Shown: positions 42,137-63,901, numbered from the stretch's first letter. The stretch: DNA of 64,000 nt from an uncultured Pelagibacteraceae bacterium (GCA_902571005.1 CACGAG010000004.1:178-64177); one strand, 5' to 3'. The notes: generated by a model from the letters alone, not told the origin. A program made the numbers and translations.

Positions 42137-42211
42137 GGGCACGTAGCTCAGTGGTAGAGCATCACGTTGACATCGTGGGGGTTGTTGGTTCGATCCCAAC
42201 CGTGCCCACCA
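42137..42211 (+). tRNA. tRNA-Val(GAC)
   Basis: GGGCACG/CGTGCCC acceptor stem, GCTC/GAGC D stem, TCACG-TTGACAT-CGTGG anticodon arm (GAC at 42169-42171), GTTGG-TTCGATC-CCAAC T arm, encoded CCA. Confidence 0.98.
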
Positions 42212-60715: not shown

Positions 60716-61459
60716 ATGGCAGGCCACTCTAAGTTTAAAAACATTATGTACCGCAAAGGTGCACAAGATAAAAAGAGAGCTAGTTTATTTTCTAAACTTT
60801 CAAAGGAAATTACGGTAGCAGCTAAGTTAGGTGCGCCTGATCCTGATCAAAATGCGAGATTAAGATCGGCTATACAATTAGCAAAAGCCTCAAGTTTCCC
60901 AAAGGAAAATATTGATAGAGCCATAAAAAAATCTTTGGATAAAGATACTGTTAACTATGATCAAATGAGGTACGAAGGATTTGGTCCAAACGGAACGTCG
61001 ATAATTGTCGAGGCACTTACAGATAATCGAAATAGAACAGCCTCAAATGTAAGATCTGCATTTCAAAAATTTGGAGGTTCAATGGGCGAAACAGGTTCAG
61101 TCTCCCATGCATTTAATCATTATGGTTTTGTACGTTACAACAAAGACGTGACAAGTGAAGAAGATTTTTTCAACTTTTCAATTGAGGGTGGAGCTGAAGA
61201 TTGTTTTATCGAAGAAGATACTTATGAAGCAGTATCCACGCCGGAAAATCTGTCAAATTTATATAATTATTTAGATAAAAAATTTGGTGAACCTGTATCA
61301 TCAGGTTTCCAATGGAAACCTGTTACGTATGTAGCAATTAAGGGAGATAAACTTAAATCCCTTATTAACTTGCTAAATGAACTTGATAATGACGAGGATG
61401 TTCAACAAGTCTTTTCAAATTTTGAGGCATCAGACGAAGAATTAGCAAAGTTTGCTTAA
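60716..61459 (+). CDS. yebC: YebC/PmpR family protein
   Basis: MAGHSKFKNI..RKGAQD, YEGFGP.G, LTDNRNRT, DEDVQQVFSN. Confidence 0.96.
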   Translation: MAGHSKFKNIMYRKGAQDKKRASLFSKLSKEITVAAKLGAPDPDQNARLRSAIQLAKASSFPKENIDRAIKKSLDKDTVNYDQMRYEGFGPNGTSIIVEALTDNRNRTASNVRSAFQKFGGSMGETGSVSHAFNHYGFVRYNKDVTSEEDFFNFSIEGGAEDCFIEEDTYEAVSTPENLSNLYNYLDKKFGEPVSSGFQWKPVTYVAIKGDKLKSLINLLNELDNDEDVQQVFSNFEASDEELAKFA

Positions 61460-61525
61460 TTTATTCACTTTCAAAAAAAATTATATGAATTAATCTTAAA
61501 TTATTAAGTAATTCTGATTCGCTTT

Positions 61526-61906
61526 ATGCCAGGTAGTTCTCCAAAAAGAAAAGGTGATGGATACGAGAGAGAGCTTGCGAAGTACTTTAATGAAAAGATT
61601 TTTAATGGAGAAGATAAAGTTCAACGTATGCCTTTGTCAGGTGGTGGTGCTATCAAATCTTCTGGAGGTAGCGATTTAAAAAATACTCCTCATATATACG
61701 TCGAAGCTAAAAGAACTGAAAAGTTCAAAATTCATGAGTCAATGAGACAAGTATGCGAAAATATTGAAACATCTAAATCAGACTCAATGCCGGTTGTTAT
61801 AACGAGAAGAAATCGAGAGGCAACAGGGGACTCACTTTGTGTTTTGAAACTTGACGACTTCATAGAACTTTATCGAATATTAATTAATAGTAAAAAAGGA
61901 CTTTAG
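61526..61906 (+). CDS. Hjc-like (archaeal/phage-type) PD-(D/E)xK Holliday junction resolvase
   Basis: KRKGDGYERE, RMPLSG, SDL and YVEAKR reproduce the Hjc layout KG..xER / RxPxSG / D / ExK; no RuvC-type motifs. Confidence 0.75.
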   Translation: MPGSSPKRKGDGYERELAKYFNEKIFNGEDKVQRMPLSGGGAIKSSGGSDLKNTPHIYVEAKRTEKFKIHESMRQVCENIETSKSDSMPVVITRRNREATGDSLCVLKLDDFIELYRILINSKKGL

Positions 61907-61949
61907 GATTTGCCCTAATTAAGACAATATTTAATAATAATTGAAAATT

Positions 61950-62654
61950 ATGGAAAACGAAGATTTAGTAAGTGTTAGCCAAGTAAACGATGAGTTTACA
62001 TTAATTTCACTTTTTTTTAGAGCGGATATTGTCGTAAAGCTGGTAATTCTAATTCTGTTTGCTTCTTCTATTTTCTCATGGACTATAATAATTCATAAAA
62101 TTCGTTTATTTCGTTCTTTAAAAGAAATCAGTAAGCAGTTTGAGGAAGAATTTTGGTCGGGAAGATCAATAAAAGAAATCACGAGTAGCACGAGAGAATT
62201 ACCAGAAAGTCCAATTAAGTATGTTTTCAATGAAGCTGTTGATGAGATTGAAAAGTCTAATCAGGAAACTACAAAAAAAATAGATAGTTTAGTTGATAGA
62301 TTAAATCGTGTTATGGAGGCAGCAATAGATTTTCAAAATGAGAAGCTATCCGAATACTTTAGTTATTTGGCAACAATAGGAGCTACGACTCCATTTATTG
62401 GATTATTTGGAACGGTCTGGGGTATAATGAATTCTTTTCAATCTATTGCTATTTCAAGAAATACCTCCCTTGCAGTAGTTGCTCCTGGAATAGCTGAAGC
62501 ATTATTTGCAACAGCTCTAGGTTTATTAGCAGCAATACCAGCTGTTATAGCCTACAATATATTTACTAGTCAGGTGAATGATGAAAATGCAAGAATGTAT
62601 CGATTTAAAGAACATTTTAATGTCATTTTCTCAAGAGGCTTGAGTACGAAATAG
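61950..62654 (+). CDS. tolQ: Tol-Pal protein TolQ
   Basis: S..SW.II, LATIG...PFIGLFGTVWGIMNSF, VAPGIAEAL.ATA.GL.AAIPAV.AYN. ATG 61950 preferred over TTG 61941. Confidence 0.95.
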   Translation: MENEDLVSVSQVNDEFTLISLFFRADIVVKLVILILFASSIFSWTIIIHKIRLFRSLKEISKQFEEEFWSGRSIKEITSSTRELPESPIKYVFNEAVDEIEKSNQETTKKIDSLVDRLNRVMEAAIDFQNEKLSEYFSYLATIGATTPFIGLFGTVWGIMNSFQSIAISRNTSLAVVAPGIAEALFATALGLLAAIPAVIAYNIFTSQVNDENARMYRFKEHFNVIFSRGLSTK

Positions 62655-62667
62655 AAATTTTTAAATT

Positions 62668-63072
62668 GTGACACGTAACACTCGATCAAAACCATTCAGT
62701 GAAATTAACGTAACACCATTTGTTGATGTAATGTTGGTTTTATTAATCATTTTTATGGTAACCGCTCCTTTGTTAACAGTAGGAGTTCAGGTTGATTTAC
62801 CTGAAACAAATGCTGATACTTTACAATCAGACAATGAACCACTTGAGGTAACAATTGATGCGAGCGGTAATATATTTATTCAAGAGACCGAAATAGGAAT
62901 TTCCGAACTAGTTCCAAAAATGAAAGCAATAACAGAAAATAGGCTTGATACAAAAATTTATGTTAGAGGAGACGAAGCAATTGATTATGGACAGATAATG
63001 ATGGTTTTAGGTGAGCTATCTGGTTCTGGTTTTACTAAAGTTGCTTTGATTACTAAGCCATTAAGTAAATAA
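62668..63072 (+). CDS. tolR: Tol-Pal protein TolR
   Basis: SEINVTPFVDVMLVLLIIFMVTAPLL, V.LP, RGD..IDYG. Confidence 0.95.
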   Translation: MTRNTRSKPFSEINVTPFVDVMLVLLIIFMVTAPLLTVGVQVDLPETNADTLQSDNEPLEVTIDASGNIFIQETEIGISELVPKMKAITENRLDTKIYVRGDEAIDYGQIMMVLGELSGSGFTKVALITKPLSK

Positions 63073-63088
63073 TTAAAGCTATTTATAT

Positions 63089-63901
63089 ATGAGAGTTTCT
63101 GTTTTAGGGTCAATATTTCTACACGTTTTTATACTTTTATTCACGGTCTTATCTTTGCCATTATTTAATAATAATGATTTGGAAATGCCACCGGTCATAC
63201 AAGTTGAATTAATAGAAATTGCAGAAAAAACAAATGTCCCAGAAATTAGTAAAAAAATCGAAGAACAGAAAGAACCAATTGAAAAAAAGAAGGAAGAAAC
63301 AAAATTAAACCAGCCAATTAGTAAACCTAAAGATGAGAAATCCAACGAAAAAGTAAAAGATCCGAGCGATGAAGAAAAAATTGAAAAGACAAAATTAGAA
63401 GAAAAAATGATACAAAACATGCCTGTACGAAAACCTGAAGTAAAGAAAAAAGACAAATTTGATCCTCTTAAATTAGCTGAGTTAATCGATAAACAAAAAG
63501 ATACAAAAATGGATAATCCAGAAGAAATTATAGAAAAAGATTATGAAGCGTTAGACTCAACACCCAGTCTCGACAAACGACTTACTTTATCAGAGGAGGA
63601 TGCTATTAGAGCTCAATTCATGCAATGCTGGAGCATTCCTCTTGGAATTCCATATGATGATACAATGATTGTTAAAATTAAGATTTATTTAAATACAGAT
63701 GGTTCCTTGCTTAAACCCCCAGAGGTTGTTCAGCACGAAAGGATGAATAAGCCTAGCGAAAAATATTTTAGAACTCTTGCTGAAAGTGCCCTTAGAGCTG
63801 TAAGACGTTGTGATCCTATAAAAGTTCCAGATGTTGAAAGATATGACAATTGGAAAAATTTACAGTTGAATTTTGATCCTAGAGAGATACTAAGAGGATA
63901 A
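63089..63901 (+). CDS. tolA: Tol-Pal protein TolA-like
   Basis: N-terminal TM with S...H motif, K/E-rich linker, C-terminal TonB/TolA domain (CW.IP.G, AESA.RAV..C.P, F.P). Confidence 0.85.
   Translation: MRVSVLGSIFLHVFILLFTVLSLPLFNNNDLEMPPVIQVELIEIAEKTNVPEISKKIEEQKEPIEKKKEETKLNQPISKPKDEKSNEKVKDPSDEEKIEKTKLEEKMIQNMPVRKPEVKKKDKFDPLKLAELIDKQKDTKMDNPEEIIEKDYEALDSTPSLDKRLTLSEEDAIRAQFMQCWSIPLGIPYDDTMIVKIKIYLNTDGSLLKPPEVVQHERMNKPSEKYFRTLAESALRAVRRCDPIKVPDVERYDNWKNLQLNFDPREILRG

Follow-up and report, generated by a model that had tools for sequence, protein, structure and literature searches.

The analysed window is a stretch of 64,000 nucleotides from an uncultured Pelagibacteraceae bacterium (GCA_902571005.1, CACGAG010000004.1:178-64177). 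The span 61460-61949 consists of a 66-bp spacer, one open reading frame (ORF) and a second spacer of 34–43 bp before tolQ (Table 1). The ORF encodes a putative Holliday junction resolvase and is flanked by yebC on the 5' side and by tolQ-tolR-tolA on the 3' side. Located 5' of yebC are ymdB, the gene of a 5-formyltetrahydrofolate cyclo-ligase, zapA, tkt, gap, pgk, fba, efp and an inositol monophosphatase gene. The motifs quoted in an earlier note on this DNA are all found in the translated protein: KRKGDGYERE (residues 7–16), RMPLSG (34–39), SDL (49–51) and YVEAKR (58–63).

Table 1 Features of the yebC-tolQ region and of the putative resolvase gene (positions in the window).
Feature	Positions	Strand	Remarks
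yebC (TACO1/YebC family), left anchor of the replaced block	60716..61459	+	Pfam PF20772 and PF01709; synteny
yebC-resolvase spacer	61460..61525	+	66 bp; heptamer TGATTCG at 61515-61521
Putative Holliday junction resolvase gene, PD-(D/E)xK (Pfam PDDEXK_15, Hjc-like)	61526..61906	+	ATG start, 126 aa
Glu14 codon, catalytic motif I	61565..61567	+	Aligned with Hjc Glu12 and Hjc_15-6 Glu10
Ser49-Asp50 codons, catalytic motif II ("SD" of E-SD-EVK)	61670..61675	+	Asp50 invariant in 34 members
Glu60-Ala61-Lys62 codons, catalytic motif III (E-x-K)	61703..61711	+	Aligned with Sso Hjc E-x-K
tolQ-tolR-tolA, right anchor of the replaced block	61941..63901	+	Pfam for TolQ and TolR
tolQ	61941/61950-62654	+	PF01618
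tolR	62668-63072	+	PF02472
TolA-position gene	63089-63901	+	Position and similarity to relatives

That no prophage genes, integrase or repeats lie near the resolvase gene, as the same note had stated, was borne out by Pfam analysis of the flanks and by a repeat scan, in which only chance AT-rich repeats were found within 5 kb around the gene. No tRNA gene is located nearby, the sole tRNA in the window being at 42137, 19 kb away. The yebC-resolvase spacer contains no promoter or terminator signal above chance. The heptamer TGATTCG in this spacer is positioned 4 nt before the resolvase ATG and occurs as a single + strand copy in the 64-kb window. In an alignment of 10 divergent SAR11 loci, among which synonymous sites are saturated, the heptamer is invariant. 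Because it is not Shine-Dalgarno-like, it possibly acts in the regulation or translation of this gene specifically. Elsewhere in the window, positions 1-37200 are occupied by approximately 37 kb of nearly unbroken same-strand ORFs with a GC content of 0.23–0.30, as opposed to 0.31–0.36 in the housekeeping half, and this region could be a surface-polysaccharide or hypervariable region.

The resolvase protein matched the Pfam family PF24608 (PDDEXK_15, "phage putative PDDEXK endonuclease") over residues 7–121 with 34.9 bits against a gathering cut-off of 27 bits, and all 34 aligned relatives also scored above the gathering threshold of this family. The next match was Pfam Hjc (PF01870), which was sub-threshold (13.3 versus 21.1 bits, E = 0.084); weak PF01870 matches were obtained for 14 of the 34 relatives (best E = 0.0017), and no further family recurred. 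In PHROGs, the protein fell into phrog_244 (E = 1e-20), a family labelled as junction resolvase, "RusA-like". The Pfam models for RuvC (PF02075, at E ≤ 1), RusA (PF05866) and RecU (PF03838) gave no match, and no NCBIfam model matched the protein. The SAR11 protein is thus assigned, from its sequence, to PF24608 as a predicted PD-(D/E)xK nuclease and is not a member of the Pfam Hjc, RuvC, RusA or RecU families.

Residues K7, K9, G10, E14, R34, S38, G39–G41, D50, E60, A61, K62 and R63 are invariant in 34 family members. These include the Hjc-type catalytic motif E...(P/S/V)D...E-x-K, represented by E14, S49-D50 and E60-A-K62. In the profile search, E14, E60 and K62 aligned with E12, E55 and K57 of Sulfolobus solfataricus Hjc (Sso Hjc), and the Asp lay within a loop offset of three residues. 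A search of the single protein sequence against solved structures yielded only noise. With the family profile, the marginal sensible matches were of two kinds, the resolvase of Thermus phage Tth15-6 (PDB 7BGS) and S. solfataricus Hjc (4TKD), and the alignments to both covered KxKGxxxE...R-x-P-x-S-G and E-x-K.

The AlphaFold2 model of the resolvase (pLDDT 85.5) has an alpha/beta core with the order alpha-beta-beta-alpha-beta-beta-alpha. When this model was used for a fold search of the PDB, the best matches were Archaeoglobus fulgidus Hjc, ST1444 Hjc and Hje, all of them weak (E = 0.04–0.3, TM-score 0.38–0.44), and 10 of the 14 top matches were Hjc or Hje. RecU structures appeared at ranks 22 and 27 (E = 0.6–0.7). 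Among predicted viral structures, 17 matches were obtained at E ≤ 1e-3 with TM-scores of up to 0.80, several of which are annotated as Holliday junction resolvases. The protein had been described in the earlier note as an Hjc-type resolvase. The catalytic motif and the nearest characterised fold, itself a weak match, agree with that description, but the protein belongs to PF24608 rather than to Pfam Hjc. Overall, the SAR11 protein is Hjc-like by all sequence-level criteria.

An alternative reading is that of a PD-(D/E)xK nuclease that acts on another substrate, such as flaps, forks, or damaged or foreign DNA. PF24608 is a "putative" endonuclease family, PD-(D/E)xK folds have many functions, and the similarity to Hjc is weak. 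A literature search found no biochemically tested member of PF24608. On the other side, junction resolvases make up nearly all of the closest characterised folds and of the viral matches that carry an annotation.

The archaeal Hjc and Hje enzymes (PF01870; S. solfataricus Hjc, 4TKD; A. fulgidus Hjc, 2WCW) resemble the SAR11 protein in their size of approximately 125–140 aa, in the PD-(D/E)xK core, and in the succession of an N-terminal KxKGxxxE helix, R-x-P-x-S-G, (S/P)D and E-x-K. They are stand-alone cellular resolvases that work without RuvAB, as the SAR11 protein would be if it resolves junctions. In the SAR11 protein, unlike in Hjc, a glycine-rich loop (SGGG...GG) precedes the catalytic Asp, the host is bacterial and the origin putatively phage, and a PCNA-interaction motif is not expected. 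Hjc_15-6 of Thermus phage Tth15-6 (PDB 7BGS/7BNX) is a phage Hjc-like enzyme that cleaves junctions in vitro and has the E-SD-EVK motif with Glu10, Asp40, Glu53 and Lys55 (PMC8805305). It shares the E-SD-E(V)K motif with the SAR11 protein, and the two align over KxKGxxYExEL...R-x-P-L-S-G, although the sequence match is marginal (E about 1). It differs from the SAR11 protein in being thermophilic, in its length of 163 aa, and in being still a phage gene that is not domesticated.

The resolvase family comprises approximately 1560 clusters at 50% identity. A gap in sequence identity separates the SAR11 group, whose members are at least 68% identical, from all other relatives (57% or less). Of the 121 family members placed in a neighbour-joining tree, those from SAR11 grouped as one clade in 40 of 40 bootstraps, with phage proteins as the nearest neighbours; the phylogeny against phage homologues came out as the earlier reading of a phage-derived gene would have it. 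The six non-SAR11 contexts examined were all phage genomes or fragments, among them marine temperate phages of ~57 kb. One of these is Roseobacter phage CRP-810, whose gp22 carries the annotation Holliday junction resolvase. The phage gene is situated 3' of a Prim-Pol gene with 1–2 small ORFs or a gap in between. Contigs that extend far enough also have an AAA_24 ATPase gene in the vicinity, and most contexts include an integrase gene; CRP-810 also has a PD-(D/E)xK nuclease. This location of the phage homologues in a recombination/replication module is a further point against a substrate other than junctions.

The proteins of CRP-810 and its ~57-kb marine temperate phage relatives belong to PF24608 like the SAR11 protein, are 45–57% identical to it and are annotated as resolvases. 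They differ from it in being phage-borne, in the GC content of their loci (0.41–0.54), and in mostly having acidic C-terminal tails. The tails, which are present on most phage members (e.g., P0073, P0078, P0100, and P0112), are 10–60 aa in length and Asp/Glu-rich, and they often end in NGxxDGEETD- or KLKLVVNNNG-like motifs. All SAR11 proteins end directly after the core without such a tail. The phage tails may be a partner-binding module that was lost on domestication.

Searches with the resolvase protein recovered 47 species-level genomes, all of Pelagibacteraceae/Pelagibacterales (SAR11), with 75–100% identity, and a protein identical to that of the window is encoded on at least 1000 contigs, the longest of which is 1.41 Mb. 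As far as the contigs extend, the order ymdB-yebC-X-tolQ-tolR-tolA, in which X denotes the resolvase gene, is kept in 51 of 51 SAR11 loci. Synteny across the clade thus places the gene at one fixed site, yebC-X-tolQ. In the most distant SAR11 loci, X shows 75–79% identity, in comparison with 61–64% for ymdB and 63–70% for yebC. The median pairwise dN/dS of the resolvase gene is 0.047, with values from 0.008 to 0.070 for the flanking genes, and its dN is below that of ymdB, yebC and tolA. Its GC content (0.354) and GC3 (0.244) are the same as those of its neighbours. Because of this fixed synteny, low dN/dS and neighbour-like GC and GC3, the resolvase is a long-resident core gene under strong constraint. 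The phage loci have a GC content of 0.41–0.54 and the SAR11 gene is host-like in composition; the transfer is therefore taken to be old, with full amelioration.

Some of the assemblies show a split yebC or a yebC-ymdB fusion, as well as broken tolB and ftsH genes (L002 9193-9936, L003 9715-9936, L186 and L188 6343-7891). All four genes are intact in the sister assembly L001, and the split or fused genes in L002, L003, L186 and L188 look like frameshift errors of long-read/MAG assemblies, not pseudogenes.

The close relatives outside SAR11 are all phage genes, and this would also be expected of a decaying prophage remnant or of a selfish or defence gene without a core role. Such an origin of the present-day locus is highly improbable, given the single fixed site in 51 of 51 loci, the dN/dS of 0.047, the host-like GC3, the lack of adjoining phage genes or repeats, and the single SAR11 clade. 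Moreover, none of the 381 viral contigs with a relative in IMG/VR encodes a protein more than 57% identical to the SAR11 protein, i.e., no SAR11-type copy was present in these viral contigs. The prophage-remnant and defence readings were accordingly rejected on the grounds of conservation, composition and context. The suggestion of a domesticated gene of phage origin fits instead: the SAR11 proteins form one clade among phage homologues, and the gene has a fixed site, is under purifying selection and is host-like in composition. Judged by these comparisons, the gene appears to be a single acquisition from a phage-borne family that became a fixed host gene.

In a search for a SAR11 RuvB, metagenome contigs were scanned with an AT-rich codon pattern of the RuvB motif FIDEIHRL (one exact codon pattern), and at least 120 contigs matched. 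The scan found marine alphaproteobacterial contigs with a GC content of approximately 0.30 and proteins 40–55% identical to those of the window. The order on one of them (L093) is gap-zapA-(5-formyltetrahydrofolate cyclo-ligase)-ymdB-yebC-ruvC-ruvA-ruvB-ybgC-tolQ-tolR-tolA-tolB-pal-cpoB-tilS-ftsH. The same ruvC-ruvA-ruvB-ybgC arrangement is found on L138, L085 and L108 as far as these contigs reach, and it also lies between yebC and tolQ on the long contigs L186-L188, which represent a very abundant relative. RuvB of the L186-L188 type was detected on 171 contigs of up to 779 kb, with one of 1.21 Mb, and it falls into more than 110 clusters at 90% identity. When the RuvB of this relative was used as a protein query, the matches were dominated by its own very abundant clade. 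The organism represented by L186-L188, L093 and L138 may be of the HIMB59 / AEGEAN-169 type.

Around the locus, gene order is common to SAR11 and these relatives with ruvCAB-ybgC over approximately 18 kb. From efp to ftsH, the order in SAR11 (L001) is the same as in the relatives, with the single 126-aa gene in place of ruvC-ruvA-ruvB-ybgC, so that four genes in ~2.5 kb correspond to one gene in ~0.48 kb. A true RuvC is encoded at the yebC-adjacent position in L093 and L187, and ruvC adjoins yebC in Escherichia coli as well. The thioesterase gene ybgC, located 5' of tolQ in the relatives (L093 5948-6361; L187 10002-10415), is missing at the SAR11 locus. Since ybgC is missing as well, the replaced block consists of four genes, not three. 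The claim that the resolvase gene occupies the ruvCAB position is upheld by these AT-rich marine alphaproteobacteria, which have ruvC-ruvA-ruvB-ybgC there within the same gene order. RuvC (PF02075) and the SAR11 protein share the presumed reaction and the position after yebC; RuvC differs in its RNase H fold, and there is no sequence or profile similarity between the two.

We then considered whether RuvA and RuvB are encoded elsewhere in SAR11 genomes. tblastn with E. coli RuvA, RuvB and RuvC detected no similarity in either the window or the SAR11 loci. For the isolate HTCC1062, the gene list in Table S1 of Smith et al. (2010) (PMC2864753) was used, which is a nearly complete list of its genes and contains 1377 locus-tag tokens of the SAR11_0001 to SAR11_135x series, with a few tags missing. 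A search of this table by gene name, and thus for this one isolate, gave zero entries for "ruvA" and zero for "ruvB" (PMC2864753). The term "DNA helicase" occurs three times in the HTCC1062 table (uvrD, dnaB, and recG), and recA (0641), recG (0993), priA (0234), recO (1052) and ligA (0016) are also listed. "Holliday" occurs once, for SAR11_1079, a "putative resolvase" located between gatC and pyrB, which from this position we take to be a YqgF-type protein; the table has no second entry with "Holliday" and none for a "junction" helicase. SAR11_0593, directly before tolQ, is labelled "ruvC, crossover junction endodeoxyribonuclease" and is equated with the resolvase gene of the window by position only. 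The name "ruvC" is a functional label here and is wrong at the family level, as the protein has no RNase H fold.

The RuvB contigs from the metagenome scan were inspected for SAR11. Those classified were Clostridia-like, flavobacterial-like, Prochlorococcus-like, gamma-like or non-SAR11 alphaproteobacterial, and no SAR11 RuvB was among them (matches listed, at least 120, with ~35 short contigs left out), which lends weak support to the loss of RuvAB. Tetranucleotide correlation did not separate SAR11 from other AT-rich DNA. The AT-rich RuvB pattern also found three contigs (L095, L142, and L185) with smpB-ruvB beside a TPR-protein gene; they were read as Prochlorococcus-like from their gene order and serve as a positive control for the sampling of marine AT-rich genomes.

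It is conceivable that the junction resolvase replaced RuvC only, and that RuvA and RuvB encoded elsewhere in SAR11 deliver junctions to it, as RuvAB does to RecU in Firmicutes. RecU (Firmicutes and Mollicutes) is likewise a PD-(D/E)xK resolvase that replaced RuvC lineage-wide, and it is a distant fold match to the SAR11 model (rank 22); it differs in working with retained RuvAB, in its larger size, in its stalk region and in its Pfam family. RuvAB is near-universal in bacteria, and this general expectation favours the retention of RuvAB in SAR11. In the accessible part of a 2025 survey of SAR11 recombination genes in single-cell genomes, RecBCD, RecF and MutSL are named as missing and Ruv is not mentioned, which points the same way; ruvABC, if included among the genes surveyed, would have been scored as present in those genomes. 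Nevertheless, the entire ruvC-ruvA-ruvB-ybgC block is gone from the ancestral site, the HTCC1062 table has neither ruvA and ruvB nor a second "Holliday" or "junction" helicase entry, and no SAR11 sequence was found among the classified AT-rich RuvB contigs (matches listed). A replacement of RuvC alone therefore seems unlikely. RuvAB is probably wholly absent from HTCC1062, and a complete absence across Pelagibacteraceae is likely, at a lower level of confidence. The in-place replacement of RuvABC proposed in the earlier note thus finds support in the site comparison and in the absence of ruvA and ruvB from the window, the SAR11 loci and the HTCC1062 table, the last being an annotation-based record of one isolate.

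The identity of the lost genes also bears on the substrate of the nuclease. Exactly the resolvasome genes were replaced, and the genome otherwise has only the "putative resolvase" that is presumably of the YqgF type. We consider it quite improbable, slightly more so than the retention of RuvAB, that the protein acts on a different substrate and occupies the former ruvCAB position by coincidence.

We propose that the gene encodes a small, Mg2+-dependent PDDEXK_15 endonuclease, a putative junction resolvase, that was acquired once from a phage and probably replaced ruvC-ruvA-ruvB-ybgC. In the proposed course of events, a Pelagibacteraceae ancestor would have taken the gene once from the replication/recombination module of a temperate phage, and the captured gene would have been fixed between yebC and tolQ, where it took over the site of the four genes. 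In the cell, strand exchange by RecA would form a four-way junction, and branch migration would be carried out by RecG, by RecA itself or by thermal migration, with no dedicated RuvAB motor. A dimer of the nuclease would then bind the four-way junction and introduce paired nicks on two opposing strands by means of Glu14, Asp50, Glu60, Lys62 and Mg2+, and DNA ligase would seal the nicked products. Of this scheme, we infer that the enzyme is specific for junctions, that it forms a dimer and acts in partnership with RecG, and that RuvAB has been lost from every SAR11 genome.

RusA, encoded by the E. coli prophage DLP12, provides a functional precedent because it is phage-derived and substitutes for RuvA, RuvB and RuvC given RecG: it suppresses ruvA, ruvB and ruvC mutations of E. 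coli, and RecG is required (PMC10956419). An archaeal Hjc has been reported to complement an E. coli ruvC mutant (PMC10956419). RusA differs from the SAR11 protein in its unrelated fold and family and in being a cryptic suppressor in E. coli, not a fixed core enzyme. By analogy, the SAR11 arrangement would follow the same logic as the rescue of E. coli ruv mutants by RusA and RecG. On balance, we lean towards the view that the whole Pelagibacteraceae lineage resolves the junctions of recombination and replication forks without RuvAB, by a captured phage Hjc-like resolvase together with RecG, and would thereby represent a fixed natural version of the E. coli rus suppressor.

The labels given to homologues of the gene differ: NCBI has "hypothetical protein", IMG has "Holliday junction resolvase", and the HTCC1062 annotation has "ruvC". 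The earlier note had singled out the gene as a candidate for an undescribed system. In this respect, annotators had already guessed the resolvase function; what seems undescribed so far is the true family of the protein (PF24608), its origin from phage and the loss of RuvAB. A literature search found no paper that links SAR11 or Pelagibacter with ruvA, ruvB, ruvC or PF24608, and none on the phage origin of the gene. Because of the mislabelling, pathway surveys can wrongly score SAR11 as RuvC-positive or as resolvase-less. Both ruvA and ruvB belong to the 120 bacterial marker genes used in taxonomic classification, and completeness estimates that count them would be biased low for SAR11 if RuvAB is absent.

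SAR11 bacteria are the most abundant in the ocean, and RuvAB is among the most widely conserved recombination machines of bacteria. If the proposal is true, SAR11 would be the first clade of free-living bacteria in which RuvAB is known to be missing, with a minimal recombination toolkit consisting of RecA, RecOR, RecG, PriA and the Hjc-like resolvase. It would also be a clear-cut case in which a core cellular machine was ousted from its own locus by a gene of phage origin. Together with the known absence of RecBCD, RecF and MutSL, this minimal toolkit could contribute to the unusually permissive, high-rate recombination of SAR11, and it would offer a concrete, testable molecular variable for models of recombination and diversity in this group.
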